From: Salinicola corii
GTDB taxonomy: Bacteria; Pseudomonadota; Gammaproteobacteria; Pseudomonadales; Halomonadaceae
Direction of reading: 5' to 3'
Length of the DNA: 32,000 nt
Assembly: GCF_008298015.1 (NCBI RefSeq)
Contig: NZ_VTPX01000003.1
Span: 36,290 to 68,289 of the forward strand
Below, in pieces: positions 2,352-19,897 of the stretch. Positions within the stretch are counted from its first letter, which is position 1. Every line of letters starts with the position of its first letter. The notes beneath the pieces were generated by a model. That model did no database searches. It had not been told where the DNA came from and worked only from the letters and a program-made list of their open reading frames with translations. Position numbers and translations under genes: made by a program.

Positions 2352-2436
2352 ATTCATGATGCTGGCTCACGCGCCGTCTTGAAACCGCAAGGCGGCGGAA
2401 ACTCGGTCGCTGCGCAGCCGATTGCTGAATCCGATA

Positions 2437-2474: not shown

Positions 2475-2485
2475 GGAGTAGTCTC

Positions 2486-2737
2486 ATGGATGCCATTAGC
2501 TATACAGCCGCCAGAACCAACCTGGCAAAAACCATGGAGCAGGTCTGTGAAGACCATTCACCGGTCATCATCACCCGAAGCAAGTCGCAGTCCGTAGTCA
2601 TGATCTCTCTTGACGACTATGAGGCGTTGCAAGAAACCGCTTATCTCCTGCGCGCACCGAAGAACGCCCGTCGCCTGTTGGAATCCGTCGCCGAGCTGGA
2701 GTGCGGCGGCGGCCAGGAAAAGGAACTTCTTGAATGA
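2486..2737 (+). CDS. yefM: Antitoxin YefM (module 2)
   Basis: 83 aa, colinear by eye with E. coli YefM (ISYTAARTNLAKTMEQVCEDHSPVIITR...LDDYEALQETAYLLRAPKNARRLLESV). AGGAG lies 7 nt upstream. ATGA overlap with the next gene at 2734-2737. Confidence 0.95.
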   Translation: MDAISYTAARTNLAKTMEQVCEDHSPVIITRSKSQSVVMISLDDYEALQETAYLLRAPKNARRLLESVAELECGGGQEKELLE

Positions 2738-2988
2738 AACTTATCTTCTCCGAGAACGCTTGGGAAGATTATCTGTACTGGCAGAAAACCGACAAGAAGC
2801 TCGTTATCCGAATCAACAAGTTAATCCAGGAGACGAAACGAGAGCCATTCGAGGGTGTTGGCAAACCGGAACCCCTCAAACACAGTCTCGCTGGTTATTG
2901 GTCTCGCCGAATCAACGACGAGCACCGCATGGTCTACAAGGTCATGGAGGACGCCTTGCTTCTTGCCCAGCTTCGGTACCACTACTGA
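2734..2988 (+). CDS. yoeB: Toxin YoeB (ribosome-dependent mRNA interferase, module 2)
   Basis: 84 aa, colinear by eye with E. coli YoeB (MKLIFSENAWEDYLYWQKTDKK...PFEGVGKPEPLKHSLAGYWSRRINDEHRMVYKV...LRYHY). Confidence 0.95.
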   Translation: MKLIFSENAWEDYLYWQKTDKKLVIRINKLIQETKREPFEGVGKPEPLKHSLAGYWSRRINDEHRMVYKVMEDALLLAQLRYHY

Positions 2989-2993
2989 CGGCT

Positions 2994-3052
2994 TGTTCAC
3001 ACTATCCATGCAGCCGCGATGGAGCCGGTTTTTCGTGAGGCTAGTGTGAACA
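2994..3052. repeat. Perfect 11-bp inverted repeat in the convergent yoeB / AOS intergenic region
   Basis: TGTTCACACTA (2994-3004) and its exact reverse complement TAGTGTGAACA (3042-3052), separated by 37 nt that contain a T5 run (3029-3033). It sits 6 nt after the yoeB stop and 9 nt after the AOS stop. Possible bidirectional terminator or recombination/boundary site. Confidence 0.5.
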
Positions 3053-3060
3053 GTCCCTGG

Positions 3061-4383
3061 TTAGTTGGCCCGCGCCTTCCACTCCGTTGCCAGTACGTCG
3101 AGGGTCTGGTCGATCTGTTCGCGGGTATGGTCGCAGTTGAGGAAGAATCGTAGCCTCGCGCTCTTCTCGGGCACCGCCGGGTGCAGGATCGGCTGCACGT
3201 TGATGTCGTGCTTGAGCAGGGCATCCGATAGCCCGGCGGCGAGCACGGAACTGCCGACGATGATCGGCACGACGGCGACGCCGATGCTCTCGCCGATGTC
3301 GAAGCCTTTGAGCCTGGCCTGCTCGAGGAAGTAGCGCGAGATGTCGTGCAGCCGCTTCAACCGTTCGGGTTCGTCCTTCATCAGCTGGAGTGCGGCGAGG
3401 GATGGCCCGGCGACCTGGGCAGGCATTCCAACGCTATAGAGGAAACCCGGCGCGAAGTAGCGCAGCATCTCCACCAGCTCCCGGCAGCCGGCGATGTAGC
3501 CACCACAGCCGGAAAGCGTCTTGGATAGGGTGCCCATCCAGATATCGACATCACCGGATGGCACGTCACAGTATTCCCGCAGGCCCAGCCCCCGATCGCC
3601 CATCACCGCAAAGGAGTGAGCCTCGTCCACCATCAGCCAGGCCTGGTGGCGCTGCTTGATCTCGACGAAGCGCTTCAGATCCGGAGCGTCGCCATCCATG
3701 CTGTAGAGCCCTTCGATCACTACCACCACGCGCTCGAACTGGCGACGATGACGCCCCAGTAGGGCCTCGAGCGCGGCCGGATCGTTGTGCGCGAAGCTCA
3801 TGCGCCGTGCACCGGATAGCTGCGTGCCGACTACCGTGCTGTTGTGGATGTACTCGTCGTGGAGGAGAAGATCCTTGGGGCCGAGCAGGTAACCCAGCGT
3901 CGAGACGTTGGTAGCATGGCCGCTAACGAAGACCACGGCATCCTCGACAGCGTAAGTGTCGGCGATCGCCCGCTCCAGTTCATGGTGGATCGGACGTTCA
4001 CCGGAAACCGGGCGGCTGGCGGAAACCGAACTGCCGTAGCGTTCCAGGGCCTCGATACCGGCCTGGATTACCTTGGGATGATGCGCCAGACCCAGGTAGT
4101 TGTAGCTGGCGAAATTGATGCACTCCCGTCCGCCAATCACCGTGGTCGCGCCGGCGGTGCTTTCATGGACCTTGAAGAACGGATCGGGGATACCTAGCCG
4201 CTTGCCACCTTCACGCATCATCTTGAGCTGCTGATAGCCCGGATGGCGGTCGAAGCGGGTAAAGCGCTCGTCGACGCTGCTGGCGGCAGGCTTGGGGGCG
4301 GTATCTCCCTCCGGCCGTTGCTGGCGGCGCTGGCGTGCTTCCTGCAGCAGGCGCTGCTTGAGGGCGTCGCGGGGCTGGCTCAT
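3061..4383 (-). CDS. Alpha-oxoamine synthase family PLP enzyme (serine palmitoyltransferase / AONS / KBL-like), last gene of the PKS operon
   Basis: 440 aa with the family motifs ASYNYLGL, SGHATN, YSMDGD, VDEAHS and GTLSKTLSGCGGYIAG (PLP lysine). Carries a roughly 60-aa basic N-terminal extension. Its ATG overlaps the PKS stop (ATGA, 4380-4383). Confidence 0.88.
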   Translation of the reverse strand: MSQPRDALKQRLLQEARQRRQQRPEGDTAPKPAASSVDERFTRFDRHPGYQQLKMMREGGKRLGIPDPFFKVHESTAGATTVIGGRECINFASYNYLGLAHHPKVIQAGIEALERYGSSVSASRPVSGERPIHHELERAIADTYAVEDAVVFVSGHATNVSTLGYLLGPKDLLLHDEYIHNSTVVGTQLSGARRMSFAHNDPAALEALLGRHRRQFERVVVVIEGLYSMDGDAPDLKRFVEIKQRHQAWLMVDEAHSFAVMGDRGLGLREYCDVPSGDVDIWMGTLSKTLSGCGGYIAGCRELVEMLRYFAPGFLYSVGMPAQVAGPSLAALQLMKDEPERLKRLHDISRYFLEQARLKGFDIGESIGVAVVPIIVGSSVLAAGLSDALLKHDINVQPILHPAVPEKSARLRFFLNCDHTREQIDQTLDVLATEWKARAN

Positions 4384-7300
4384 GATTCGCCTCTCTCGGT
4401 CCCGCTATCGTCCCGAGACTCGGCGCCATTCTGAAGCGCGTCGACGCCGTGCTGGGCGGCAAGGCCGCTGAGTGCATCCTCGTCGCTGTCGGTCTCGGTA
4501 TCGTCGCCACGCAGCTTGAGCATCAGGTAGTCGCACAGCTTGGCCAGCGTGTCGGCCTCGCTAAGCACCATCACCGGCACCTGAATGCCCAGACGGGCTT
4601 CCAGTGCCGTGACAAGCTCGACGCCCATCAGCGAGTCGAAGCCCATGTCGTAGACGGACTTGTGGATATCGATCTTCTCCTCGTCGATCAGCAGAATCTT
4701 GGCGAGTTCCTTGCCGAGAACTTCGGTCAGAGTGGTGTGGAGCGCTTCGGGTGACAGGCTGGCCAGCAGTTTTTGCAGGTCATCGTCACCTTCCTGACCG
4801 CCGTCATCCTCGGCAGTACGGGCGATTTCGCGGTAGCGTGGCGCTTCCGCCGTGGGCAGGAAGCGTGCCAGCGCTCGCCAGTCGAGTTCCAGCACGCCGA
4901 GCGAGGCGACATCGGCCACCAGCATCTGCTCGAGTACGGCCAGCGCGTCGCTGGAGGCCAATGCCTGGCCGCCGAGGCGTTCCTGCAGGCTGTCGCGGGT
5001 CTGGGTATTGCGCGCCAGAAAGCCGACATCCTCGATTGCACCCCAGCGGACCACCGTCGCCGGGCGACCGTTGGCGCGACGGTTGGCGGTGAACGCCTCC
5101 AGCCAGTGGTTGGCGGCCACGTAGCTGGCCTGACCGGGGTTGCCGAACAAGGTGGTGGCAGAGGAGTAGACAACGAAGAAGTCGAGTGCATCGTTCGCCG
5201 TCAGCGAGTCCAGGTGACGAGCGCCCTCTAGCTTCGGTGCCATCGCCTGGCGGATGCGTGCTGCGTCGAGATTGCGGATCAGACCGTCGTCGATGACGGT
5301 GGCGGCATGTACGATGCCGCGAATCGGGCCGAGGCTCTCACGCGCTTCGTCCAGCACCCGCTCTAGCGCCTTGGCGTCGGTCACGTCACAGGCGCGGGCA
5401 GCGACCGTCACGCCGAGAGCTTCCAGCCGCTCGATGCTGGCCTCGGCTGCCTCGGTGACAGCACCGCGGCGGCTCAATAGCAGCAGCTGGCGCGCGCCTT
5501 TGGCGGCCAGCCATTCGGCGCTCGCAAGGCCGAAGCCGCCGAGTCCGCCGGTCACCACGTAGGTGCCCGTCGCGTCCAGCATCAGCGGAATATCCCTGGC
5601 GGGCGCGGGCGCCATTGTCGGCGGTCGCTCGTAGGTGACGACGACTTTGCCGATCTGGCGCGCCTGTTGCATGTAGCGGAAGGCCTCGACCACGCGATCG
5701 CTGCCGAACGCGATGTATGGCAGCGGGGCGAGCGTGCCGTCGGCGAACAGGGTCATCATCTCGCTGAACAGTTCGCCGGTGAGATCTGGAAGTTCGCTCA
5801 TGAGCTGGTCGGAATCGACCCCGAAGTAGCTCAGATTGTTGCGGAACGGGCGCAGGCCGACCTTGGTGTTCTCGTAGAAGTCGCGCTTGCCGAGTTCAAT
5901 GAAGCGGCCGAACGGCTTGAGTACCCGCAGGTTCTGGTTGATCGCCTCGCCGGCCAGCGAGTTGAGCACCACGTCGACACCATCGATGCCGATGCGCTGA
6001 CCGTTGCCGCCGTCTCTCGATGCCTGACGTTCGACCGCGTTGTCATGGAGGATCTCCTCGGCGAAGGTCAGGCTGCGCGAGTCGTAAATGCGATCAACGC
6101 CCGTCAGACGCAAGAAGTCCTGCTTCTCCGGCGAGCCGACGGTGGCGTAGATCTCGGCTCCCAGCCAGCGTCCGACCTGGATTGCGGCCAGGCCGACGCC
6201 GCCGGCCGCGCCATGGATCAGCAGCCGCTCGCCGGGCTGCACGCGGGCCAAATGCTTGAGCGAGTAGTAGACGGTGAAGAAGGTCGTCGGGATCGTCGCA
6301 GCGGCGGCGTAGCCGATCTCCGCGGGAATCGGCGCCACGGCGTTGACGTCGGCGATCAGGCGATCGCTGAAACTCGCGGGGCCGAAGCCGACCACGGCAT
6401 CGCCCGGGCGCAGCGACCCGTTTGGATCGCCGACGCTGACGACTTCTCCGGCAAACTCCAGGCCCAGCGTCGGTCCGGCAAAGCCGTTCTCGATCGCCTC
6501 GTCGGAGAGCAGGCCGAGCGCATACATGACATCGCGGAAGTTGAGGCCGGTGGCCTTGACCGCGATCTCGACCTGGCCGGGCTGCGGCGCGGGCAGGTCG
6601 TGCGGCCGCCAGCGCAGATGACGCAGCTGCCCCGGCAACTCGAAGCCCAGGCTGACAGCGCGATCGTGTCCGGGCCGCTCCTCGCTGGGCCGGGTGCCCG
6701 GCGCCGGTGCCAGGGCCAGGCGGGGCACCCAGCGCTGGCCTCCGGCGTCGAGCACGACCTCGGTTTCCGCATCCGGCATGCTGAGTTCGAACAACACGGC
6801 ATCCAGCAGCTCGCTCGACAGCGAGTCCCGACTCGACAGCGGCAGATCCAGTAGCCGAACCTGTCGGTTACCGGCCTCGTTCTGCAGCGATCGGCCGAAG
6901 CCCCACAAGGCTGCGTCTTCAGCTAGCTTGGAAATACCGGACTGCCCGGATGATTCAGGCCGCGAAACCGGGTCGGCTGCGGCCTCGGGCAGTATGAAAA
7001 AGTGGGCTCCCACGCCGAGTGTGAGCCACCACAGCGCGGCGTCGCTCTCCATCGACTCCAGCGTCTGCAGCCACTGGGCGGCCAGCACGCAGCGATCGTC
7101 GGCCGCGCTTGCCAGGCCACGCAGATCGACGATCTGACTCGGGGTGAAGGACTCCAGCGCCAGCGGCAGCAGTTCGCCAGGCATCAGCTCGCTGCCGGCC
7201 AGGTGGTGGACGGCCTGGCCCAGTGTCTTGAAGCGGGAGACGAGCTTGGAGGCCAGCCATTGAGAGCTGTCGTCGCTGACCACCAGCCACTGCTCGGTAT

Positions 7301-10300
7301 CATGGGCCGAGTCGTCACGGGCGGTTCCGGGCTCTGCCTCCGCCGTGGCGGAAGACAACGGTGCCTGAGCGGTCAGTAACTGCAGACCGCCCTGGTCGTT
7401 CTCCAGCGTGTGGCGTTCGAGCTGACGGTAGCCCAGTGCTTCCAGTCTGTGGCGGGTCGTCTCGAGATCGGCGGGGCGTGAATCGGGCGCCATCGCCAGT
7501 GACAGGAACGACTGCCAGTCGGTGTCGCCCAGTGCCAGCAACGCGATCTGCGCGTCGTCCGCCAGTTGTCCCGGCAACCACTGCAGCAGCGTATCGATCT
7601 CGTCCTGGGTGCCATCCAGCGTGACCAGTGCGACATTGGCACCGATCGCGGGAGGGGCGGCGTCAACCGTCAGCAGGTCGACCCTGGCATCGTGTTCCGC
7701 CAGGGATTCGGCTTCATTCAGGGCGTTGTCGCGCAGGGCGACGAAGCGATACTGGGCGCGATCGCCGCTCAATCCGCCCATCAATCGTTCACCGAGCTGC
7801 GGGCGCAGCGCCGAGGCTTCTAGCATCACCAGCCGCTGGTGGGGCGGCAGCAGCTCAAGCGACATGGCGTACTGGGCCAGCCAGGTATCGGCCAGGGCGT
7901 GCCAGCCGCGTTCGCCGACGGCGGCCTGTACCAGTTTCGTCAGGCGGGGGGCGTCCAGACCCAGCGAGGGGACATCGAGACGCTCTTTGAGCCAGTCCGT
8001 CAGATGGAGGCCGAAACGGCCGATGCTGTGGGTCAGCGCGGCGTAGTCCGGGTAGTCCCGGATCAGCAGATTCCAGACCGTCGCCGCATCGATCTCCGGC
8101 GCTTCCTGCAACTGCCAACCGGCCGGCGTTTCCGTCACGATGCCGATGGCAAGCGCTAGGTCGACCAGCGCCTGGCGGCGTTGGCGGATCTCGCTCGCGC
8201 CGGCATCGAAATGGCCCGCCAGCAGTTGACCGTCGCTGTCGGCGTGGCTGCGCAGGGCCTCGTCGAGAAACGCCGAGACCAGGGTCTCCAACAGCGGCTC
8301 GACCTCGTCGCCGTAACGGCTTCCGGTCACGCTCCGGTAGTTGTCGACCAGTTGCGCCAGTGCCAGCTCGGCGGTGGTCTCGTCCAGCGGCAACACGGCA
8401 GCTTCGCGCGGAGCCGGAACGAGGCGATGGTCGAGATAGCTGAGTCGATGCTGTACCGCGTGGCGCAGACGGGCGGCCTTGAAACGGGCGCCTTCGACCA
8501 CCGCCACGGCATTGCCAGTGGCATCGAACAGTGCCACGTCGGCACACAGCGAATGCGGCGCGCGGCTGGTGAGGCGTACTTCCATCCACGCTGGCGGCGC
8601 AGCATCGACCTGCAGTTGCAGCCGTTCAAGGCGCACGGGCACGAAGGCCAGTCCGCCTCCCTTGGCGAGTTCGTCGGCCAGCAGCGGAATGAATAGCTGG
8701 AAGGCGCTGTCGAGGATACCCGGTGCCAGCAGGCAGTCGCGCTGGTCCTCGGCGATGGCGGCGGGCAGGTCGATGCGACCCAGCGCGCGGTCGCCCTCGA
8801 CCCAGACTTCGCTGATCGCCTGGAAGCCCGGCCCGTACTCGAGCCCGACGTGAGCGGCCATCGCCAGATGCTGTTCTCGGGTGACGTCCGCCGGCCGGTC
8901 GGGCAGTGGCGTGCCGCGGCGAGTCAGCAGCAGGCCACGGGTCTGCACCGTGATCCGGGCCCGGGCGTTAAGGGTCCAGGCATCCTCGCTGGCCGGCTCG
9001 CGGGTCTTCATGGTCAGGGAGCCATCGGCATCCTGGATCTCCAGTTGCAGCTTCTTGCCATGGACGGCGTCGAGCAGCAGCGGGCTGAGAATCTCCAGCG
9101 CCTCGATATCGAGCACTGGCGATGCCTTGGCGGCGGCCGCTGCGGCAAGTGCCAGTTCGGCAAAGCCCGCGCCCGGGAATACCGTGGCGTCGCCGACGCG
9201 GTGATCGGCCAGCCACGGAAGGCGGCGGGTATCGAGTTGGCTTTCCCACGCCATTCCTTGGCGAGCCAGGCGATAACCCAGTAGCGGGTGTTCGTAGTGG
9301 CGTCCCATCAGTCCCTGGGAGTCTCCGGTAGCCTTGACCCAGTACCGCTCGCGCTGCCATGGATAGCGCGGCAGGTCGACGAAACGACCGCTGACAGGGA
9401 ACCACGCCTTGGGAGAGACGGCGCCGCTGACCAGTAGCGCGGCGAGACTGGCATCCATGGCGGTGGCGCCGTCGTGCTCGCGACTCAGCGTGCCGATGAC
9501 GCTGCCGGTGACCGACTGCGCGGAGAAGGCGTCAGTCAGGTAGCGTCGCAGAATCGGTTGCGCGCCGATCTCGACGAAGGCTCGAGCCCCCGCTTCGAGC
9601 AATGAATCGACCGCCGGTGAGAACTGCACCGGTTCGCGGATATTGAGCCACCAGTACTCGGCGCCCAGTTCTCTGCCGTCCAGCGCTTTGCCGGCCACGG
9701 TCGAGATGAACGGTATCCGGGTGGCGGAGGGCTTCAGATGCGAGAGGGCGTTGATGACCTCCTGGCGAATCGGATCCATGGCCGGGCTGTGGAAGGCATA
9801 GTCCAGCGCTAGGCGCTTGGCGAAGATCCGCTCGTCGGAGAGTGCCGCTTCCAGGCGTTCCAGCGCATCCGCTGGGCCGGCCAGGGTGACGCCCTTGGGG
9901 CCGTTGACGCCGGCGATCACGATCGCCGAGTGAGCGGGGGCTTCCAGCCAGCGCTGCATGGCTTCGGCGCCGAGGCCGACAGCGGTCATCTCACCGCTGC
10001 CGCGGGTGCGGCCTTGGCCGGCGCTGCGATAGTAGATGACGCTGACAGCGTCGGCCAGGCCAAGCGCGCCACAGGCCCAGGCCGCGGCGACTTCACCCAC
10101 GCTGTGGCCGATGACAGCGGCGGGGCGCACGCCCTCGGACTCGAGCAGTCGGGTCACGCCGACCTGCAGCGCGAACAGCGCGGGCTGGGCGATCTCCGTG
10201 AGGGCCAGCCGATCGCCTCTCTCCACGGCCTCGTGCTGGTTGGTGCCATCGAGTTCGGCACGCAGCGAGAAGTCGGCGTGTTTCGCGAACAGTGCGTCGA

Positions 10301-11972
10301 CTTCGTCGACGGCAGCGGCGAAGACAGGGGACTCCCTCAGCAGCGTGCGACCCATCGCCGTCCACTGGCAGCCGTTGCCGTCGTAGACGAACACCGGGCC
10401 GTAGCCGGCATCGACGCGCTCGCCGAGGGCGGCGCCGGGTACGCTCTCGGCGGCGGCCAGCGCGTCCAGGCGGGTGATCGCGTCGGCGGTGTTGTCGCTC
10501 AGCAATATCGCTGCGTGGGGGTGCTGTTCGCGGCGGAAGGCGAGGCTGTAGGCGGTGTCGTAGAGCGAGACATCGCCAGCCGTGAGGCTGTCGCTGAGGC
10601 GCGCGGCGAACTCGCGCAGCGCTTCCGGGCTGCGAGCGCTCAAGCACAGCGGGAGACGCCGAACGGGCGACTCGGCGACCTCGGCTGCTGGCGTTTCCGG
10701 CGGCGACTGCAGGATGACGTGGGCGTTGGCGCCCCCGAAACCGAACGAGTTGATGCCGATGGTGAGTTGCCCCTCGGCCTTCAGCTTGCGCGGTTTGTCG
10801 ACAATGTCGAGGTTCCAGCCCTTCAGGGCGATGCGCGGATTGACCTTGCGAATGCCGATGGTGGCGGGAACTTCACGCTCACGCAGCGCATAGAGCGCCT
10901 TGGCGAGACCGGCGATGCCGGAGGCGGTTTCCAGGTGACCGAGGTTGCTCTTGACTGAACCGATCGGCAGCGGCGTCTGGCGCTTCTGGCCGATTGCCGC
11001 GCCGATGGCGCGGGTCTCCAGCGGGTCGCCGACGGCGGTACCGGTGCCGTGGGCCTCGAGGTAGTCGAGGTCGTCCGGCGTCAGCCCGGCACGCGCCAGG
11101 GTCTGGGTCATCAACGCGACCTGGGCGTCGGGATTGGGGACCGTCAGGCCCTTCTTGAAACCGTCGGTGTTGACGCCGCTGCCGGCGACCACGGCCAGAA
11201 TGCGATCGCCATCCTCGAGCGCCTTGTCGTAATCCTTGAGCAGGAAGACCCCGCCGCCCTCGGAGCGCACGTAGCCGTCGCCGGACTCATCGAACACCTG
11301 GCAGCGTCCGGTGGGCGAGAGCATGCTCGCCTTGGAGAAGATGATGAAGCCGAACGGGTGCAGGTGCAGGCTGATGCCGCCGGCCAGCGCGATCTCGGTC
11401 TCGCCGCTGCGGATCGACTGGCACGCCTGGTGGAAGGCGACCAGCGAGGACGAGCAGGCGGTATCCATCGACATGCTCGGGCCATGCAGGTCGAACACGT
11501 AGGAGATTCGGTTCGAGGCGATACTCGAGGTATTGCCGGTCGCCGTCGAGGTGTCGATCACCGACATGTCGTCGGCCATGCGGTAGGAGTAGTCGAGACT
11601 GGAGATGCCAAGGAAAACGCCGCACTGGCTGCCGCGCAGTGTCTGCGGTGGAATGCCGGCGTCTTCCATGGCTTCCCAGGTCATCTCCAGCAGAATCCGT
11701 TGCTGTGGATCCATCTGGGTAGCTTCGCGCGGCGAGATGCCGAAGAAACCTGCGTCGAAACCGGAGATGTCGCCGAGACTACCGGCGGCGAAGGTGTAGC
11801 TGGTGCCGGGATGCTGCTTGTCCGGGTGGCGATAGGCTTCCAGGCCCCAGCGGTCGTCTGCGACCATGGTGACGAGATCTTCGCCGGTCTTGAGCGCTTG
11901 CCAGAAACGTTGTGATGTCGGAGCGCTCGGAAACCGGTGAGCCGCGCCGATGATGGCAACGCGTTTGGTCAT
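4380..11972 (-). CDS. Type I polyketide synthase, FAS-like fully reducing: KS-AT-DH-(degenerate MT/psiKR)-ER-KR-ACP, no release domain
   Basis: KS: DTACSSS (Cys codon 11454-11456), HGTGT, GHLE. AT: GHSVGE (Ser codon 10101-10103), YAFHS. DH: HRVGDATVFPG (His codon 9201-9203). ER: LIHGAAGGVG. KR: TGGLGGFG ... YSSATTLFGNPGQASYVAAN. ACP: GFDSLMG (Ser codon 4632-4634). The start is placed at the ATG at 11972 (MTKRVAIIGAAHRFP) because AAGGAG (complement of 11978-11983) lies 5 nt upstream. The ORF track extends to 12020. Confidence 0.95.
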   Translation of the reverse strand: MTKRVAIIGAAHRFPSAPTSQRFWQALKTGEDLVTMVADDRWGLEAYRHPDKQHPGTSYTFAAGSLGDISGFDAGFFGISPREATQMDPQQRILLEMTWEAMEDAGIPPQTLRGSQCGVFLGISSLDYSYRMADDMSVIDTSTATGNTSSIASNRISYVFDLHGPSMSMDTACSSSLVAFHQACQSIRSGETEIALAGGISLHLHPFGFIIFSKASMLSPTGRCQVFDESGDGYVRSEGGGVFLLKDYDKALEDGDRILAVVAGSGVNTDGFKKGLTVPNPDAQVALMTQTLARAGLTPDDLDYLEAHGTGTAVGDPLETRAIGAAIGQKRQTPLPIGSVKSNLGHLETASGIAGLAKALYALREREVPATIGIRKVNPRIALKGWNLDIVDKPRKLKAEGQLTIGINSFGFGGANAHVILQSPPETPAAEVAESPVRRLPLCLSARSPEALREFAARLSDSLTAGDVSLYDTAYSLAFRREQHPHAAILLSDNTADAITRLDALAAAESVPGAALGERVDAGYGPVFVYDGNGCQWTAMGRTLLRESPVFAAAVDEVDALFAKHADFSLRAELDGTNQHEAVERGDRLALTEIAQPALFALQVGVTRLLESEGVRPAAVIGHSVGEVAAAWACGALGLADAVSVIYYRSAGQGRTRGSGEMTAVGLGAEAMQRWLEAPAHSAIVIAGVNGPKGVTLAGPADALERLEAALSDERIFAKRLALDYAFHSPAMDPIRQEVINALSHLKPSATRIPFISTVAGKALDGRELGAEYWWLNIREPVQFSPAVDSLLEAGARAFVEIGAQPILRRYLTDAFSAQSVTGSVIGTLSREHDGATAMDASLAALLVSGAVSPKAWFPVSGRFVDLPRYPWQRERYWVKATGDSQGLMGRHYEHPLLGYRLARQGMAWESQLDTRRLPWLADHRVGDATVFPGAGFAELALAAAAAAKASPVLDIEALEILSPLLLDAVHGKKLQLEIQDADGSLTMKTREPASEDAWTLNARARITVQTRGLLLTRRGTPLPDRPADVTREQHLAMAAHVGLEYGPGFQAISEVWVEGDRALGRIDLPAAIAEDQRDCLLAPGILDSAFQLFIPLLADELAKGGGLAFVPVRLERLQLQVDAAPPAWMEVRLTSRAPHSLCADVALFDATGNAVAVVEGARFKAARLRHAVQHRLSYLDHRLVPAPREAAVLPLDETTAELALAQLVDNYRSVTGSRYGDEVEPLLETLVSAFLDEALRSHADSDGQLLAGHFDAGASEIRQRRQALVDLALAIGIVTETPAGWQLQEAPEIDAATVWNLLIRDYPDYAALTHSIGRFGLHLTDWLKERLDVPSLGLDAPRLTKLVQAAVGERGWHALADTWLAQYAMSLELLPPHQRLVMLEASALRPQLGERLMGGLSGDRAQYRFVALRDNALNEAESLAEHDARVDLLTVDAAPPAIGANVALVTLDGTQDEIDTLLQWLPGQLADDAQIALLALGDTDWQSFLSLAMAPDSRPADLETTRHRLEALGYRQLERHTLENDQGGLQLLTAQAPLSSATAEAEPGTARDDSAHDTEQWLVVSDDSSQWLASKLVSRFKTLGQAVHHLAGSELMPGELLPLALESFTPSQIVDLRGLASAADDRCVLAAQWLQTLESMESDAALWWLTLGVGAHFFILPEAAADPVSRPESSGQSGISKLAEDAALWGFGRSLQNEAGNRQVRLLDLPLSSRDSLSSELLDAVLFELSMPDAETEVVLDAGGQRWVPRLALAPAPGTRPSEERPGHDRAVSLGFELPGQLRHLRWRPHDLPAPQPGQVEIAVKATGLNFRDVMYALGLLSDEAIENGFAGPTLGLEFAGEVVSVGDPNGSLRPGDAVVGFGPASFSDRLIADVNAVAPIPAEIGYAAAATIPTTFFTVYYSLKHLARVQPGERLLIHGAAGGVGLAAIQVGRWLGAEIYATVGSPEKQDFLRLTGVDRIYDSRSLTFAEEILHDNAVERQASRDGGNGQRIGIDGVDVVLNSLAGEAINQNLRVLKPFGRFIELGKRDFYENTKVGLRPFRNNLSYFGVDSDQLMSELPDLTGELFSEMMTLFADGTLAPLPYIAFGSDRVVEAFRYMQQARQIGKVVVTYERPPTMAPAPARDIPLMLDATGTYVVTGGLGGFGLASAEWLAAKGARQLLLLSRRGAVTEAAEASIERLEALGVTVAARACDVTDAKALERVLDEARESLGPIRGIVHAATVIDDGLIRNLDAARIRQAMAPKLEGARHLDSLTANDALDFFVVYSSATTLFGNPGQASYVAANHWLEAFTANRRANGRPATVVRWGAIEDVGFLARNTQTRDSLQERLGGQALASSDALAVLEQMLVADVASLGVLELDWRALARFLPTAEAPRYREIARTAEDDGGQEGDDDLQKLLASLSPEALHTTLTEVLGKELAKILLIDEEKIDIHKSVYDMGFDSLMGVELVTALEARLGIQVPVMVLSEADTLAKLCDYLMLKLRGDDTETDSDEDALSGLAAQHGVDALQNGAESRDDSGTERGES

Positions 11973-12009
11973 TGGGACTCCTTGCTTCGTAGCATGGGCT
12001 ACGCCTTTC

Positions 12010-13569
12010 TCAATTCGCACCGCGCCTTCCAGCGTGGTCGATAATCCTGTCGTAGATTGTTACTCCCAGCTTATCGGCTGGAAGCGTCATCCGCACGTTA
12101 TCCCCCGAACGGGGTGCGGTCTGCCAGATGAAATAGTTCGTGAAACCATCCGGCTCACCGTGTCGTGCGTAGACTTTCGGCATGATCGGCACGTGATCTC
12201 CGTAAAAACCCAGAATGCCGGGCCGTCCGCCTTGATGAAGAGAGTCCCTGAGTCGTTCCAGCATACTATCGGTGTTGCGTAGATGCTTCAGATAAACCGT
12301 CAGCTCTTCGCAATCGTCGGTAACGCCGCCTTCAACCCAGCGTTCGGCGACGGCCGGGTCCGCCGTCTCCAGGTGGAGCGGGCCGTGATTCTCCATGCTG
12401 ATCACGAAAATGAACAGCGGTTTCTCGTCGGCTATCGTCAGCCGTTTCCGAACCCGCTCCGCCAGCGCGAGATCGCCGGTGTACTGGCCGTCGCGCTCGT
12501 CGATATCGAAGTCGGCGATATCGACGAAGGTCTCGAAGCCCAGGTTGGGATAGACCTTGTCGCGCAGATAGAAGCTGGCGGGATAGGGGTGAATGCAGAC
12601 CGTCCGGTAGCCCAGGCGCTTGAGCGCGCCGGCCAGGTTGTTGACCGGTAGCTTCGATAACTGGTGGTAGGGGTTGAAACGATGCACGCCGAGACGGGAT
12701 GGCGTGAGCCCTGTCAGTACCGCACACTCCGTGCGCACGGTGTTGGCGCCCCAGGCGGGCACGTCGAAACGGCCGGCCTGCAGGGCTTCGGCCATGAGCG
12801 CGTCATACGTGCCTAGCAGATCGCGGCGAATGGCCTGATGCCAGTCGCGAGGGTCGAAGAACGACTCGCTCTGGACCAGCACCACGTTCGGCAGCGTGGC
12901 GGGATCCATGCTGTCCATATCCAGATCGACCGGCAAGGCGAAGGCGCTGTCGTTGTCCTGACGGTCGATCGGCTCACGTGTCAGGCGACCATAGGCCCAG
13001 AGGTAGGGATAGAGGCCGAGCCTGACCAGGTCGTCGTTGGGTTCGAGCGTACAACCCGTCAGCCGGGGCAGTTGCCAGATCAGCACGGCGATACTGGCCG
13101 CGACCAACACCAGGGTGCCCAGCAGCGACCACGGCGCGTCGGCATGGCCGTAGAGCGAGGGCTCGAGCCAGAAGCCGATACCGATCGCGATGGCGCCGGC
13201 CAGGCTGGCGGCGATGGTCAGACCGATACCGAAAAAGGGGATGTAGAGGCGGGGATGGCGAACCGCATCGACGAAGTACTCGAAGTCTTGGCACAGAAAG
13301 GGTTCACGCAGCGAGCTCGACTTGGTGTTGTTGACCTGGATCACCACCATCTGCAGCGAAGCGGCGATCACCAACGCAAACCAGGGGCGCTGCACGATCA
13401 ACAGCCAGAAGGCGAAATGCAGCACGGCGGTGGCCAGGTGAACGGCAACTGCTGCCGGCGCGCGCTGCCACAGCAGCCGGGGGCGCGGTTTGAGCAGCAG
13501 TTCGAACAGGCTGGTGACGACCAGCGTGGCCACCGTCGCCCAGACCCCGTTCCAGAATCCATGAATCAT
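12010..13569 (-). CDS. LTA-synthase / OpgB (MdoB) / sulfatase-family membrane phosphotransferase
   Basis: 519 aa. About five N-terminal hydrophobic helices (aa 1-180), then an alkaline-phosphatase-superfamily domain (VVLVQSESFFDP, GANTVRTECAVLTGL with candidate Thr nucleophile, FVISMENHGP, GFYGDHVP). ATGA overlap with the SDR stop at 13566-13569. Confidence 0.8.
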   Translation of the reverse strand: MIHGFWNGVWATVATLVVTSLFELLLKPRPRLLWQRAPAAVAVHLATAVLHFAFWLLIVQRPWFALVIAASLQMVVIQVNNTKSSSLREPFLCQDFEYFVDAVRHPRLYIPFFGIGLTIAASLAGAIAIGIGFWLEPSLYGHADAPWSLLGTLVLVAASIAVLIWQLPRLTGCTLEPNDDLVRLGLYPYLWAYGRLTREPIDRQDNDSAFALPVDLDMDSMDPATLPNVVLVQSESFFDPRDWHQAIRRDLLGTYDALMAEALQAGRFDVPAWGANTVRTECAVLTGLTPSRLGVHRFNPYHQLSKLPVNNLAGALKRLGYRTVCIHPYPASFYLRDKVYPNLGFETFVDIADFDIDERDGQYTGDLALAERVRKRLTIADEKPLFIFVISMENHGPLHLETADPAVAERWVEGGVTDDCEELTVYLKHLRNTDSMLERLRDSLHQGGRPGILGFYGDHVPIMPKVYARHGEPDGFTNYFIWQTAPRSGDNVRMTLPADKLGVTIYDRIIDHAGRRGAN

Positions 13570-14342
13570 CGCTGCGCTCCGTCGCCGTGGTCATAGCCGA
13601 ACCACTTGAGCAGGCGTTGCGAGATCGCCGCCGGCAGCACGGCCAGCCACCAGCTGCCGAAATTGAGCGGGAACGGGAAGCTGATCCGGGCACGGTTGCG
13701 CTCGATACCCTGGGCGATGACCCTGGCGGCGCGCTCGGGTTGCCAGATAAATGGCTTGGGACCGAGCATCTCATGGCACATCTTTGAACTGACGTAGCCC
13801 GGCATGACCACGGTGATGCCGACGCCGCGAGGCGCCAGCCAGCCGCGAAGCGCTTCACCGTAGGCTTTCACCCCGGCCTTGCTGGCGCTGTAGCTCGGTG
13901 TGACCGGCAAGCCGTGATAGGCGGCGAGCGAGCTCATCAGCACCAGTTGGCCGCGTCCCGCCGCGCGCATGCGCTTGCCAAGGAAGTTGCCCATTGCCAT
14001 CGGCACACGCAGGTTGATATCGAGCAGGCGGCTGGCGTCTTCCCATGGCTCGCCGCTGCCGTCTTCGCCGATGTTGATGTTCATGCCGGCGTTGACGATG
14101 ACAATGTCCGGCGGAGTGGGGGCGCACAGCGAATCGAGCCAAGCGAACAGGGCGTCGTCGTCGCCCAGGTCGATCTGGCTGTATTCGACCTCGGCGCCGG
14201 ATTCGCGACAGGTTGCCGTCAGCGATTCGAGCACTTCGCGCTGGCGGCCATGCAGCACCAGCCGATTGCCGGGCCTGGCGTAGACGGCGGCCAGTGCCTG
14301 TCCGATGGCTCCGGTGGCGCCGGTAATGACGATTCGAGTCAT
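13566..14342 (-). CDS. Short-chain dehydrogenase/reductase (SDR) with hydrophobic C-terminal tail
   Basis: 258 aa. Cofactor loop ITGATGAIGQAL, NAG motif (IVNAGMN), catalytic YSASK. The C-terminal FPFPLNFGSWWLAVLPAAISQRLLKWF looks membrane-associating. ATGA overlaps at both ends (14339-14342 and 13566-13569). Confidence 0.88.
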   Translation of the reverse strand: MTRIVITGATGAIGQALAAVYARPGNRLVLHGRQREVLESLTATCRESGAEVEYSQIDLGDDDALFAWLDSLCAPTPPDIVIVNAGMNINIGEDGSGEPWEDASRLLDINLRVPMAMGNFLGKRMRAAGRGQLVLMSSLAAYHGLPVTPSYSASKAGVKAYGEALRGWLAPRGVGITVVMPGYVSSKMCHEMLGPKPFIWQPERAARVIAQGIERNRARISFPFPLNFGSWWLAVLPAAISQRLLKWFGYDHGDGAQR

Positions 14343-15586
14343 GACGCGATCTCATCCATGAGTTGTTGCAGCGGAGAGCGATCTCGCTGCAGCGCCTGAA
14401 GGGCGTTTTCCGAGGCTAGCTCGATCCCGGGGCGGCAGTAAAACCCGCCATTGATCTGAACCGTCTGGGCAACGGTTCGTCGATAGGCCCGGAAGAGTCC
14501 CGCTTCCGGAGCGGGCGTATTGTGCCAGAAATCGTCCAGCTTGCCTTGATGGGTCAGGCCCGCCATGTCGTAAATCGGTGAGGCCAGGGCGTGAGTCGGG
14601 CAGCCGAAGCCTAGCGAGACGTTGCCGGCGGTGCTGTTGACCGTGACCAGACCGCTGGCGTGCTTGAGTAGTGCTTCGAGGCTCCCCCCTTCGAGATAGA
14701 CCAGGCGATCACCTAGATCGTACTCGTGGGTCAGCACCTTTATCAGCCGCGCGTACTGGGCCAGGCCCATGTCGAGCGGGTGGTTCTTGATCACCAGCAA
14801 GGCATCCCTCGGCGCATGGTAGGCAAAGGACGCGGCCACCTTCCCGATCACCTCCTGCATGTTCTTGTAGTCCGAGTGATAGCGAACCTGGGCGTCGCTC
14901 TTCAGTTGCAACGGCAGCAGATAGAACGGACGCCTGGAAGCCATCAGCGCTTCGACGCGCTGCTTGTCCCGGCGTTTCAGGTAGGGCATGCGCATCTTGC
15001 GCAGCACGAAGCCTGCGTATTCCACGGGGGCGGTGACCAGGGCGTGGTTGCGATAGTGGGGATGCAGGAACGGGTTGGCGACGCCAGCCAGGTGATAGAG
15101 CACATCGTGGCGCGCGCGCATGTGGAACTGGTTGGGAAAGGACTGGGGACGACCGGCGCTGGGCAGGCGCTCGCCGGCCGCGCGATACCAGTCGGGATCC
15201 CGGGGCAACAGCGAGTGCGCATTCACGCCCTCGCGTTCCAGCGTCACCCAAAAGGGGCGAAAGTAGCCCTCCTCGAACACGTGGTTGCGGATACCCCGAC
15301 GTCTGGCGGCAAGGATGGCGCGCCGATGAACGGGACGGCGGTCTCCGAAGACGATCTGGTCGGTAATCTCGTGTCGATCCCAGATGCCGGAGAGGTATTC
15401 GGGGATGTCCTTGGCCTGGCCGCGGTAGGCATAGGTGTTTTTCTGCCGCCAGTAGACACTGTCGCCGACGGTGAAGTTGACCTTGATGACCGAGTGTCCC
15501 GCTTCCCGCAGTCGCGCGCCCAGCCGGTCGAAAAAAGGTGAGCAGACACCCTGTAAAAGAAGAAAGTGTTTGCGTGTCGTGCTCAA
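14339..15586 (-). CDS. kpsS: KpsS-like capsule-linker beta-Kdo transferase homologue
   Basis: Colinear by eye with E. coli KpsS (HFLLLQGVCSPFF, FEEGYFRPFWVTLEREGVNAHS, FYLLPLQLKSDAQV, IKNHPLD, VTVNSTAGN). The start is uncertain. TTG at 15586 sits 1 nt after the kpsC stop (TGAcTTG) and gives 415 aa. GTG at 15664 would overlap kpsC by 77 nt. Confidence 0.82.
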   Translation of the reverse strand: MSTTRKHFLLLQGVCSPFFDRLGARLREAGHSVIKVNFTVGDSVYWRQKNTYAYRGQAKDIPEYLSGIWDRHEITDQIVFGDRRPVHRRAILAARRRGIRNHVFEEGYFRPFWVTLEREGVNAHSLLPRDPDWYRAAGERLPSAGRPQSFPNQFHMRARHDVLYHLAGVANPFLHPHYRNHALVTAPVEYAGFVLRKMRMPYLKRRDKQRVEALMASRRPFYLLPLQLKSDAQVRYHSDYKNMQEVIGKVAASFAYHAPRDALLVIKNHPLDMGLAQYARLIKVLTHEYDLGDRLVYLEGGSLEALLKHASGLVTVNSTAGNVSLGFGCPTHALASPIYDMAGLTHQGKLDDFWHNTPAPEAGLFRAYRRTVAQTVQINGGFYCRPGIELASENALQALQRDRSPLQQLMDEIAS

Positions 15587-15587
15587 G

Positions 15588-17648
15588 TCATTGCCTTTTG
15601 GAGAACAGATTGCGGTATAGCCGGTAGAGGCGGACTCGGAGCGGCAATCCCGAGCGCCGATCACGCTGTTGCTGCATCAACTCGGTGGCGGTATCGGCGT
15701 TGCAGAACTCGCCGGTGACCGGGTCGACGTAGGTTGGATACAGTAGCAGAGCGCCTGCGACCAGGGCATCGAGGGTTAGCTGCCGCTGACGCCGCGGGGA
15801 GGATAACCGGTCGCGGGTCAGTCCCCAACCGGCATAGAACGGCAGGCCGTAGGTGTGCACTTCCACGCCGCGCATCAGACCCTCGAAGCCGGTCAACGAG
15901 CACATGGTATGGATCTCGTCGGCCAGCTCGATCAGGTCGATGATGTCGCAGTCGACCAGTTCGAGGTCGTAGAGCGTTCGCGCCGTCTTGTCGAGCAGGC
16001 CAAGCCGGGCGCCCGAGACCACGTCGGGATGCGGCTTGTAGATAACGAAGGCGTCGGGCCGATTCTGCCTAACGGCCTCGAGCAGCGCCTGGTTGGTCTT
16101 GATCTCGGGAGAGCCGTAGGCGATCGAGGCGTCGCTCTCGACCTGGCCGGGCACCAGCACGACCGGTCGTGAGCCGATTGCGTCCATCGGCAGCGAGGGT
16201 CGCGTCTTGCCTTGCACGTTGTACTTCGAGAGCTTGAGCTCGGTGAGACGTTGGCGCAGGCGCCCGGCGCGGGCCAGCAGAGTCGGTTCGAAGTCCGTCT
16301 CGGTGAGCAGTCGTTCGAGATCGCTTTCGTGATCGGCGTCGTAATAGAGTCCGCGGGAGTCGAAGGCCAACGACAGTGGCCGGATCAGATCGACTCCCAG
16401 CCCGACCGAACGCACGAAACCATCCTCCATCCGCCACAGCTCGAGTCCGTGCTGGCGGCATAGCGCCTTGATCTTGTCGGTAGCCTTTTGCCCCCACACC
16501 ACCAGGCTGTCGCGGCCTTCGAGTTCATGGGGCCGCGGGTGATCGCCCGGAATGAAGCGCACGCTGGAGGCCGGACCGAGAAAATCGGTAATGAAGGCAC
16601 GCTTCCAACTGGAAAATCCGACGGCCAGCCAACGTCCCGCCAGTCGATCCCGTTGACGCTTCTGGTCGGCGATCAGGTCGATCGTCGCCTCGAGCGTCGA
16701 CACCTGCCCGGTGTAGGGGTTGGCGTAGCGGCAATAGCGCAGATAGGCCGCGGCGAACAGTTCCAAAAGCGTGCGCTCGCGCTGGCGGCGTTCGCAGCGC
16801 AGTGCATCCCGAGTCAGGCCCCAGCCGGCATAGAACGGCATGCCGAAGCAGTGCACCGGCTTTTCCGCCATCAGCGCCTCGAATCCCAGTTGGCTGGTGA
16901 CCACGTAGACCGCGTCGGCGGCGTCGATCAGCGCCCACGGATTGATATCGTTACCGATTAGCCGGCAGCGCGGATGCGCCGAGGCGCGGGTCAGGTAGCC
17001 CTGCTTGCGTCCGGCGATGACGTCGGGATGGGTCTTGATCAGAATTTCGGCATTGGGGTGATCGTCGATCGCGTTTGCCAGCATGCGCTGGAACGAACCG
17101 GCGTCGGCCATGCCATGGGTAATCGAGGCGTCGTCACGCGTCTGGTCGATGACCAGGACGCGGGGCCGGTCGGCGGGCTCGAGCGGCCGATCCGGGGCGT
17201 GGTTGTACTTCGACAGCCGCAATCGACGCAAGCGCTGCATGGCTTGGTCGGCGCGTGCCAACTCATCCGTGCCGAAGGTCGCCTCGGCGAGAAGCGTCTC
17301 CAGGTCCGAGGGCCGGGTCGCATCGTAGTAGATGCCGCTGTAGTCCACGACCAGGCTATGGGGCTGGGAGTAGTTGACGCCCAATCCCAGTGAACGCAGG
17401 AACCCGTCCTCGATGGCGATGTAGGGCAGGCCCCGGCGTGTGGCCAGGCGACGTGCCTGTTTCGACGTCGGCTTCAGGCCCCAGCCGAGAATGGCGTCGA
17501 CGGGCTGGCGGCTACCGGGCTTGAGGCGAACCTGACGCGAGTACTCCGGCAGCAGACAGCGGATGATGTTCCAGCGGGCCAGGCCCTTGGAGAGATAGCC
17601 GGCCACGCGATGGTAGGACGGTCGCAGGACTGTCGAATCGTTATGCAT
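15588..17648 (-). CDS. kpsC: KpsC-like two-module beta-Kdo transferase homologue
   Basis: 686 aa, colinear by eye with E. coli KpsC. An internal duplication is visible: IEDGFLRSLGLGV...GIYYDATRPSDLETLL / MEDGFVRSVGLGV...GLYYDADHESDLERLL; LSKYN twice; IKTHPDV / YKPHPDV; FYAGWGLTRD twice. Confidence 0.9.
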   Translation of the reverse strand: MHNDSTVLRPSYHRVAGYLSKGLARWNIIRCLLPEYSRQVRLKPGSRQPVDAILGWGLKPTSKQARRLATRRGLPYIAIEDGFLRSLGLGVNYSQPHSLVVDYSGIYYDATRPSDLETLLAEATFGTDELARADQAMQRLRRLRLSKYNHAPDRPLEPADRPRVLVIDQTRDDASITHGMADAGSFQRMLANAIDDHPNAEILIKTHPDVIAGRKQGYLTRASAHPRCRLIGNDINPWALIDAADAVYVVTSQLGFEALMAEKPVHCFGMPFYAGWGLTRDALRCERRQRERTLLELFAAAYLRYCRYANPYTGQVSTLEATIDLIADQKRQRDRLAGRWLAVGFSSWKRAFITDFLGPASSVRFIPGDHPRPHELEGRDSLVVWGQKATDKIKALCRQHGLELWRMEDGFVRSVGLGVDLIRPLSLAFDSRGLYYDADHESDLERLLTETDFEPTLLARAGRLRQRLTELKLSKYNVQGKTRPSLPMDAIGSRPVVLVPGQVESDASIAYGSPEIKTNQALLEAVRQNRPDAFVIYKPHPDVVSGARLGLLDKTARTLYDLELVDCDIIDLIELADEIHTMCSLTGFEGLMRGVEVHTYGLPFYAGWGLTRDRLSSPRRQRQLTLDALVAGALLLYPTYVDPVTGEFCNADTATELMQQQRDRRSGLPLRVRLYRLYRNLFSKRQ

Positions 17649-17895
17649 GGGTCACAGAAAGCGGGTGCGGTCCGTCGAGGAAATGTCATGTCACTGCCTT
17701 GGGCGCTGGCCCGACGCAACCGGCCCGAGTCCGGAGCGTGAGGCAATCTGGTGCGCAGTGTAACGCAAACCGCGGATCGAGGGCGCGTTTCGGCTGTATC
17801 GAATTGCTAAGCGCCGGGATTTTTCGTAATCATGTAATGCCCCCTGTTTTCTGCACACCCTACGCAGCTAATGCGGGATGTGCTCGGGGTGCCAC

Positions 17896-17980
17896 CTAGT
17901 CCAGAGACTGATGCGGCCGCTCTTCGTTGAAGTGAGTGTTGTGTTTTGAGTCAAGGAGCTTGAAAGTGCTTCTTACTGCG
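17896..17980 (-). pseudogene. Remnant of a transposase/integrase (rve core domain C-terminus)
   Basis: The minus-strand reading frame ends ...AVRSTFKLLDSKHNTHFNEERPHQSLD*. The (Y/F)NxxRPHxSL motif is the hallmark end of DDE/rve transposase catalytic domains (IS3/IS481-type). The upstream part of the 127-aa ORF has no transposase character and overlaps ligB, so only about 27 codons look genuine. Confidence 0.45.
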
Positions 17981-18124
17981 CTTCCCTCGATCGACCGAGC
18001 TCCTTTTTTGGGCCTGCAGCAGCATGGCCTCAGGATGGTTTGCGAGGGTTGATTGGTGGCGGTAATATGCGATTCTAGGCTGAGCGGCAGCCAGGGCAGG
18101 CAACCAACTGAATATGGCGGTGGT

Positions 18125-19897
<1,773 letters not shown>

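Follow-up and report, generated by a model that had tools for sequence, protein, structure and literature searches.

A translationally coupled operon of Salinicola corii appears to be a Halomonadaceae member of the rkp-1/wcb capsule lipid module

Results

A 32,000-nucleotide stretch of the Salinicola corii genome (RefSeq assembly GCF_008298015.1, contig NZ_VTPX01000003.1, positions 36,290 to 68,289; hereafter the window) contains a block of six minus-strand genes at 3061-17648 that encode two capsule-type transferases for 3-deoxy-D-manno-octulosonate (Kdo), KpsC and KpsS, a short-chain dehydrogenase/reductase (SDR), an LtaS-like membrane phosphotransferase, a giant type I polyketide synthase (PKS), and an alpha-oxoamine synthase (AOS) (Table 1). 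A sequence-only reading had described this block as a coupled operon joining the logic of sphingoid bases to capsular Kdo transferases, and had considered the combination undescribed. Its genes, checked as open reading frames (ORFs), its junctions, read directly from the sequence, and its domain assignments (Pfam PF05159, PF00884, adh_short, Aminotran_1_2, and PKS domains) all hold. The claim of novelty fails, since the same families make up the rkp-1 region of Sinorhizobium meliloti and the wcb block of Burkholderia type, and the operon thus matches a cluster that has already been characterized, genetically and not chemically. By its gene content, the operon appears to be the Halomonadaceae member of this known rkp-1/wcbO-T module.

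Table 1. Features of the operon and of associated genes. Unprefixed positions refer to the window; L numbers denote loci in other genomes.
Feature	Position	Strand	Remarks
kpsC	15588-17648	-	dual-module beta-Kdo transferase, 686 aa
kpsS/rkpJ/wcbO-like Kdo transferase	14339-15586	-	415 aa, TTG start
SDR oxidoreductase, rkpH/wcbP-like	13566-14342	-	258 aa; proposed 3-keto reductase
LtaS/GacH-like membrane phosphotransferase, rkpI/wcbQ-like	12010-13569	-	519 aa
Intergenic spacer, 37 nt	11973-12009	-	Shine-Dalgarno AAGGAG at 11978-11983
RkpA/WcbR-type single-module iterative type I PKS/FAS	4380-11972	-	2530 aa, ATG start
AOS, rkpG/wcbT-like	3061-4383	-	440 aa; proposed chain-release enzyme
Candidate promoter or leader, conserved blocks TTGCGTTACACTGCGC, GATTGCCT, CGCTTAGCAATTCGA	17741-17813	-	leader alignment
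NusG-family paralogue loci	L020, L022, L026-L029, L031, L033, L036-L038, L054, L055
PhyH genes	L003:19223-20266; L074:8159-9037; L078:7045-8001; L019:6846-7754; L020:21027-21518; L085:21004-21584

The genes are closely joined. The TTG start codon of kpsS follows the TGA stop of kpsC after 1 nt (TGAcTTG, 15584-15590), stop and start codons overlap as ATGA at 14339-14342, 13566-13569, and 4380-4383, and AAGGAG stands 5 nt ahead of the PKS ATG at 11972. A mechanical ORF list would permit longer products from GTG codons for KpsS (15664) and the PKS (12020), but the starts at the junctions are favored over these because alignments with homologues from related Salinicola loci begin there. In a simple scan of the block, no internal promoter-like or terminator-like sites were detected above chance. 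The description of the block as a coupled operon is supported. When the upstream regions of eight Salinicola-clade loci were aligned, a conserved block appeared 92-165 nt 5' of the kpsC ATG (Table 1), which is consistent with, rather than proof of, a single transcription unit with its own start. The sequence AGAAAACTTTGCTTACATTTGCC, common to the leaders of other Salinicola loci further upstream, is missing from the window.

The homology of the individual components and the integrity of their catalytic motifs can be observed directly. KpsC has two Capsule_synth (PF05159) stretches (E = 1.4e-91); its N-terminal half aligns with solved KpsC-N modules (6mgb, E = 4e-84; 6mgc, from E. coli, E = 7e-79, covered by residues 21-358) and its C-terminal half with a solved KpsC-C module (6mgd, E = 3e-68, residues 374-655), giving the tandem GT107 modules by which a dual-module KpsC is recognized. 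KpsS has one PF05159 domain (E = 1e-79) and is 38% identical to S. meliloti RkpJ, which holds the same position in its cluster. Over its full length it scores 268.8 bits with the NCBIfam KpsS equivalog NF050054, short of the cutoff of 600, and a sequence search found no match for it among solved structures; by Pfam it is a member of the family, in a divergent subfamily.

According to Pfam, the PKS has the architecture KS-AT-DH-[629-residue region]-ER-KR-ACP without a TE or R release domain, and its motifs are all retained (DPQQR, DTACSS, HGTGT, GHSVG, YAFH, GGVG, and GFDS). RkpA and WcbR have been treated as a single PKS class inside capsule clusters, for which DPQQR and HGTGT serve as the motif criterion (PMC3908369), and the PKS in the window has both. 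It is 36-40% identical to S. meliloti RkpA, 43-45% to a Caballeronia PKS, and 48% to a PKS on a Pseudomonas plasmid. The 629-residue stretch between DH and ER (PKS residues ~1168-1796; window 6585-8471, minus strand) gave no Pfam match at E <= 0.01 and is probably structural, a pseudo-KR or pseudo-methyltransferase that has degenerated, of the kind found in synthases resembling fatty acid synthase (FAS).

The AOS (Aminotran_1_2 by Pfam) aligns with solved structures of Thermus AOS, Kbl, and Spt at E values of 1e-65 to 1e-52, with its pyridoxal phosphate (PLP) lysine (TLSKT) in register. Because it falls below the NCBIfam cutoffs of bioF, Kbl, and three Spt models (277 of 640, 270 of 500, and 207 of 670 bits for the latter), we place it in an AOS subfamily of its own; that it lies under all three Spt cutoffs also rules out a true sphingolipid (Spt) pathway. 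Identity reaches 49% with S. meliloti RkpG and 57-60% with the Caballeronia and Pseudomonas homologues. The AOS gene overlaps the PKS stop codon by ATGA, and wherever both genes occur in our table of loci they are neighbors. A PKS without thioesterase whose stop codon is overlapped by the start of an AOS gene is the standard arrangement for AOS-mediated chain release, for which reason we would expect the chain to leave the PKS as a 2-amino-3-keto lipid. The SDR is a generic classical one (adh_short, E = 3.6e-29), 27% identical to S. meliloti RkpH, and its substrate would be this 2-amino-3-keto lipid.

The PKS might instead supply only an unusual fatty acid, long or hydroxylated, for an anchor built on glycerol and of the (lyso)phosphatidylglycerol type, with the AOS, SDR, and LtaS-like enzyme acting on a substrate that is not sphingoid. 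The poly-Kdo anchor of S. meliloti 1021, said to have been partly solved in 2005, is reportedly a phosphoglycerol carrying hydroxy-octacosanoic (C28) acid, which would suit such a supplier. WcbR is widely annotated as the "fatty acid synthase" of its capsule cluster (PMC3735121; PMC10752968). Yet the arrangement of a thioesterase-less PKS with an overlapping AOS gene is the classic one for release by the AOS, the two genes stay together wherever both are found, and the module has no glycerol-3-phosphate acyltransferase. We thus consider a role restricted to fatty acid supply quite doubtful.

The LtaS-like protein (Sulfatase, PF00884) combines five transmembrane (TM) helices with a domain of alkaline phosphatase fold, and an AlphaFold2 model (pLDDT 90.4) places the helices ahead of the catalytic domain. 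Both by sequence and by predicted fold, its nearest relatives among solved structures, to which it is 16-22% identical, are the phosphoglycerol transferases GacH, LtaP, and LtaS, followed by PbgA and MCR-1/EptA. Among 25 diverse family members, E235, D458, and H459, at metal or nucleophile positions, are invariant, and T277, likewise at such a position, nearly so. S. meliloti RkpI is 31% identical to it over 431 residues (E = 3e-41), and an S. corii protein at NCBI matches it at 100% identity. It is not a true LtaS (lipoteichoic acid synthase), for its score with the NCBIfam LtaS equivalog is 32.6 bits, the cutoff being 970.

All these relatives act outside the cytoplasm, with the same architecture of five TM helices and a catalytic domain, and the catalytic residues are those of phosphoglycerol transferases. 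One could thus suppose that RkpI/WcbQ works in the periplasm, decorating the exported polymer with glycerol phosphate in the manner of GacH, or re-anchoring or transferring it, while KpsS uses the aminolipid or ordinary phosphatidylglycerol directly. The distribution of charges points the other way. Among the 25 family members, lysine plus arginine average 0.1 in the N-terminus, 3.0 in loop 1, 1.1 in loop 2, 4.0 in loop 3, and 0.5 in loop 4; because loops 1 and 3 are the basic ones, the positive-inside rule predicts an N-out/C-in orientation for the family. The control, Listeria LtaP, shows the opposite pattern, loop 4 being its most basic. The start methionine is an invariant alignment column, so that no basic N-terminal extension has been missed, and cysteine counts in the catalytic domains of family members are often odd, which also speaks against a periplasmic location. 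In Orrella sp. JC864 (locus L078:10001-12220), the homologue is fused at its C-terminus to an acyl-CoA-dependent GNAT domain and has no hydrophobic or TM segment after residue 200; the fusion, found in a single genome, supports a cytoplasmic position of the LtaS-like domain. A separate GNAT gene lies directly 3' of the LtaS-like gene on the Pseudomonas plasmid (L003:16505-17107) and in one metagenome-assembled genome (L052:4860-5219). The fused and neighboring GNATs hint at N-acylation of an amine, a ceramide-like step. On balance, we regard action in the periplasm as possible but not likely, and it is rather probable that the catalytic domain is cytoplasm facing, as its sequence predicts, and phosphoglycerylates an aminolipid at the inner leaflet.

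One scan of a genome collection, anchored on conserved motifs of the LtaS-like family, yielded 80 species-representative loci. The six proteins of the window served as local tblastn queries to score which genes each locus contains, and many genes that seem to be missing fall beyond the end of a contig. The loci come from Halomonadaceae (Salinicola, Halomonas, Vreelandella, Chromohalobacter, Kushneria, Carnimonas, Cobetia), from Methylococcaceae, Marinobacterium, Neptunomonas, Nitrincola, Motiliproteus, Acidithiobacillus, and Legionella, and from many Betaproteobacteria (Accumulibacter, Comamonadaceae, Bordetella, Alcaligenes, Chitinilyticum, Methylobacillus, and others). The SDR gene stands directly upstream of the LtaS-like gene in 78 of the 80; KpsS was detected in 66, the PKS in 53, the AOS in 51, and KpsC in 47. 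All six genes occur together in 37 loci, and 31, from Halomonadaceae genera plus a few unclassified or allied genomes, reproduce the order and strand of the window exactly. The synteny thus extends across genera, and the six-gene arrangement is far beyond chance. KpsD, KpsM, or KpsE is encoded within 10 kb in 17 of the 80 loci, all of them in Betaproteobacteria or Methylococcaceae. The gene set is both deeply conserved and linked to kps export genes. The LtaS-like family itself comprises 434 clusters at 50% identity in a representative library (E <= 1e-30).

Certain AOS enzymes, CqsA among them, produce signalling molecules, and the AOS in the window has weak similarity to the CqsA structure (PDB, E = 4e-15), as might be expected if a secondary-metabolite PKS/AOS pair, making for instance a signalling amino-ketone, had come to lie beside capsule genes by chance. 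However, Alpha-, Beta-, and Gammaproteobacteria all show the association, in varied orders and always together, and the genetics of S. meliloti and B. pseudomallei link these genes to capsule. The synteny data lead us to reject this reading, whose likelihood we consider negligible.

When flanking ORFs of the Halomonadaceae loci were clustered, they proved to be conserved only within close clades, and the few held in common encode unrelated products (a GGDEF sensor, a Mem_trans permease, weak glycosyltransferase matches); the neighbors in the window include TRAP transporter genes, a LigB-like ligase, Prc, and an M18 peptidase, among others. Because the flanking genes are not conserved across genera and are unrelated to capsules, the six-gene block looks like a mobile, self-contained unit in this family. 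The genes might then be self-sufficient, making a free oligo- or poly-Kdo lipid rather than a primer for a serotype polymer. The block is closed, its neighbors differ between genera, neither a glycosyltransferase nor an export gene is encoded within 10 kb, and KpsC is able to polymerize Kdo on its own. Moreover, the K-antigen polysaccharide (KPS) of S. meliloti 1021, of low molecular mass and comparable to such a lipid, is built of beta-2,7-linked Kdo alone and carried by a lipid anchor that requires rkp-1 (PMC5539429; PMC4881576). On the other hand, even a poly-Kdo lipid needs an exporter, KpsD/M/E adjoin the module in the 17 other loci, and Halomonas (Vreelandella) malpeensis, which carries the same operon, is reported to encode kpsD, kpsM, kpsE, and kpsT elsewhere in its genome and to make polysaccharide (PMC7814019); export genes therefore exist in operon-bearing genomes of the Halomonadaceae. 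A stand-alone glycolipid is in our view unlikely.

The gene set of the rkp-1 region (rkpA-G-H-I-J) has been known genetically since 1993-1997. We found it by tblastn of the LtaS-like protein against a plasmid collection, which includes some mislabelled chromosomes. The matching S. meliloti region runs from a polysaccharide export protein (in the position of rkpU) through a 2502-residue PKS, a PLP aminotransferase-family protein, an SDR, a 512-residue LtaS-like protein, and a KpsS-like protein to kpsF, and corresponds to rkpU-rkpA-rkpG-rkpH-rkpI-rkpJ. The record in question (CP090106.1, 3.72 Mb) is titled plasmid pSymB, carries the chromosomal rkp-1 region, and is apparently a mislabelled chromosome; its rkpI ORF (14305-15843) is absent from the distributed gene table and has the LtaS motifs. 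On a Caballeronia plasmid, the order is SDR, LtaS-like gene, PKS, LpxC-like gene, and AOS, followed directly by KpsD, KpsM, KpsT, and KpsE. On a Pseudomonas plasmid, KpsC, KpsS, SDR, and LtaS-like genes together with AOS and PKS lie inside a kps locus with kdsA, kdsB, and kpsF. The letters wcbO, P, Q, S, and T are used here on the assumption, drawn from gene order rather than from a B. pseudomallei sequence, that they belong to these positions.

The operon has the features by which an rkp-1/wcbO-T module can be recognized: a single-module PKS without thioesterase, an adjacent AOS, an SDR paired with an LtaS-like gene, and a clustered KpsS homologue. In B. pseudomallei, WcbR is the type I PKS BPSL2789 (PMC3735121), and the block from wcbT to wcbO is retained in both B. 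pseudomallei and B. thailandensis even where other parts of the capsule locus differ (PMC2945791). Genes homologous to those of the operon have been tied genetically to the production or secretion of K antigen or capsular polysaccharide I (CPS-I) in S. meliloti, S. fredii, and B. pseudomallei (PMC3557214, PMC4881576, PMC7858667, PMC3735121): wcbR mutants have reduced CPS-I (PMC3735121; PMC7858667), and rkp-1 is needed for poly-Kdo secretion according to later papers that cite this work (Muller 2009, cited in PMC4881576 and PMC5539429). Within the Halomonadaceae, a Halomonas species description lists KpsC, KpsS, KpsD, WcbQ, and WcbR by automated, SEED-style annotation (PMC10752968).

Several observations concern control of the operon and its surroundings. 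No ops/JUMPstart element was detected when the operon strand of the 476-nt leader was searched for the ops core GGCGGTAG. No Rfam family matched the window, nor the kpsC leader even when the threshold was permissive. Control by RfaH and ops was rejected, as the operon strand of the leader is without GGCGGTAG and the window without a homologue of a NusG/RfaH-like gene. With one mismatch allowed, GGCGGTAG has 56 matches in the whole window versus 32 +/- 6 in shuffled sequence; because these are mostly on the plus strand and inside coding regions, the excess is more readily put down to bias in codon use or composition than to ops elements. A NusG-family (RfaH/LoaP-like) paralogue, first seen in the V. 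malpeensis locus (L085:20266-20784, plus strand), lies directly 3' of the AOS there and in 13 of the scanned Vreelandella/Halomonas loci (Table 1), and just 5' of KpsS in one Burkholderiaceae locus (L069:7431-7943), which suggests that some lineages control the operon by antitermination dedicated to it; no homologue of it is present in the Salinicola window. Upstream of kpsC, and on the same strand, an NAD-dependent DNA-ligase-like gene (18125-19867) ends 476 nt away. Its 580-residue product, LigB-like in size, has adenylation, OB, and HhH domains, and transcription of the gene may read through into the operon.

A gene of the PhyH (phytanoyl-CoA dioxygenase) family, whose putative product may hydroxylate the lipid chain, recurs beside the module in several lineages (Table 1) and is not present in the window. 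Putative ORFs of 127-221 residues without a Pfam match lie in the window at 1789-2193 (+), 1889-2314 (-), 2610-3038 (+), 17896-18279 (-), and 29123-29788 (+); some overlap one another, and the set at 1789-3038 falls in a stretch of lower GC content (55-59%) just downstream of the operon.

Discussion

The reading that we favor, at a probability of roughly 0.6, is that the operon makes the lipid terminus and Kdo linker of an ABC-transporter-dependent (group-2-like, K-antigen) capsule system. The iterative PKS of RkpA/WcbR type would assemble a long acyl chain, fully reduced, on the acyl carrier protein (ACP) domain that it carries, and the AOS (RkpG/WcbT type) would release this chain by condensing it with a small amino acid, in a PLP-dependent, decarboxylative reaction that gives a 2-amino-3-keto lipid, the ketone of which the SDR (RkpH/WcbP type) would reduce, leaving a sphingoid-like 2-amino-3-hydroxy lipid. 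The LtaS/GacH-like enzyme (RkpI/WcbQ type), predicted to face the cytoplasm, would then move a phosphoglycerol-type head group from phosphatidylglycerol onto this lipid, producing a single-chain mimic of lysophosphatidylglycerol. KpsS could add the first beta-Kdo residue, the two-module KpsC could extend the oligo-Kdo linker, and the resulting glycolipid may prime or anchor a polymer that is exported by KpsMTED encoded elsewhere in the genome. We infer every one of these chemical steps, as well as their order, the amino-acid substrate, the chain length, and the orientation of the membrane enzyme. The general logic that the sequence-only reading had proposed, in which PKS, AOS, and SDR yield a 2-amino-3-hydroxy lipid tied to KpsS and KpsC, nonetheless finds support here, and its chemistry is plausible; it amounts, in essence, to the old hypothesis of a "specific lipid carrier/anchor".

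Several points weigh against this reading. To our knowledge, every characterized relative among the LtaS, GacH, and EptA enzymes is extracytoplasmic, and the predicted topology derives from the positive-inside rule and one fusion protein. The scores of KpsS and of the AOS fall under their nearest NCBIfam equivalog cutoffs, and the exact substrates of the two enzymes may therefore differ from the textbook ones. The hydroxy-C28 anchor reported for S. meliloti 1021 would fit a phosphoglycerol head group and has no obvious amine. Full-text literature searches found no paper that solves the lipid product of the module. Lastly, the window contains no kpsM/T/E/D, kpsF/U, or serotype glycosyltransferase gene, nor does any locus from the Halomonadaceae have one within 10 kb of its operon.

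A more far-reaching version of the capsule reading can be offered only tentatively. RkpI/WcbQ may be the first LtaS-type clade with a cytoplasmic catalytic domain, and the PKS-derived base could become a "sphingoid-1-phosphoglycerol" that replaces (lyso)phosphatidylglycerol as the acceptor of KpsS, so that a non-glycerolipid aminolipid would anchor many proteobacterial capsules. If this is true, rhizobial K antigens, Burkholderia CPS-I, and the capsules of Halomonadaceae and methanotrophs would share such an anchor, and the six-gene Halomonadaceae operon would be a minimal, self-contained set for reconstitution. The inverted topology, if confirmed, would explain the presence of an enzyme of periplasmic type within an otherwise cytoplasmic pathway.

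What at first appeared to be a discovery is thus corrected: the combination belongs to the known rkp-1 region and to the CPS-I virulence locus of B. pseudomallei. For identifying the module's lipid, more than 30 years after the genes were first described, and for learning how KpsS uses it, the Halomonadaceae version is useful, being one translationally coupled unit, found in non-pathogenic, fast-growing halophiles and without serotype genes; because it is compact, coupled, and free of surrounding serotype genes, it should be a convenient minimal cassette for heterologous expression and lipidomics. New in this analysis is the testable prediction of an LtaS-type enzyme of inverted topology, which fits a fully cytoplasmic pathway.

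Relation to known systems

The Salinicola phosphotransferase shares with LtaS, LtaP, and GacH its five TM helices, the domain of alkaline phosphatase fold, and the Glu, Thr, and Asp-His active-site set, and differs from them in its predicted inverted membrane orientation and its Gram-negative capsule context. With bacterial sphingolipid (Spt) synthesis and the fungal fumonisin-type pathways of highly reducing PKS plus AOS, the operon has in common the conversion of an acyl thioester and an amino acid into a 2-amino-3-keto lipid that is then reduced, and its AOS aligns with Spt structures (E = 1e-61 to 1e-52). In the Spt pathway, however, the acyl donor is a discrete ACP or CoA and not a giant PKS, and neither a ceramide synthase nor a discrete ACP was found in the 32-kb window. 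The operon would thus work like the pathways of sphingolipids and sphinganine analogues without being a member of them.

The group 2 systems of E. coli and N. meningitidis have a close homologue of KpsC, with both GT107 modules, and a KpsS of the same Pfam family, and the proposed single-chain lipid with phosphoglycerol and Kdo would mimic their lysophosphatidylglycerol-Kdo. They lack PKS, AOS, SDR, and LtaS-like genes and use housekeeping phosphatidylglycerol. The Salinicola KpsS stands apart from theirs (269 bits versus the cutoff of 600), and kpsMTED and kpsFU are not adjacent to the Salinicola operon; the linkage of kpsM/T/E/D to kpsC/kpsS that would mark a group 2-like capsule locus is absent from the window and, within 10 kb, from the Halomonadaceae loci.

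The likeness to the CPS-I genes of Burkholderia pseudomallei, B. mallei, and B. thailandensis (wcbO-P-Q-R-S-T plus wcbA) is closer, for the order KpsS-SDR-LtaS-PKS-...-AOS is shared, as seen through the Caballeronia homologue. Burkholderia-type blocks have an additional, LpxC-like gene at the wcbS position (L002:24008-24934 in Caballeronia), whereas the Salinicola PKS and AOS genes overlap by ATGA; no homologue of the LpxC-like gene turned up in the window, nor in the 80 loci that were scanned. Export and sugar genes surround the Burkholderia block in a 34.5-kb locus; the Salinicola block has no such company.

The rkp-1 region of S. meliloti and S. fredii differs from the Salinicola operon in gene order (PKS-AOS-SDR-RkpI-KpsS versus KpsC-KpsS-SDR-LtaS-PKS-AOS), in having no KpsC in the block, which rkpU and kpsF adjoin, and in its host, a symbiont rather than a halophilic gammaproteobacterium. 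Both nevertheless comprise the same five families (the PKS RkpA, the AOS RkpG, the SDR RkpH, the LtaS-like RkpI, and the KpsS-like RkpJ), and the lipid module is not linked to export genes in either; those of rhizobia (rkp-3) lie on pSymB (PMC3557214).

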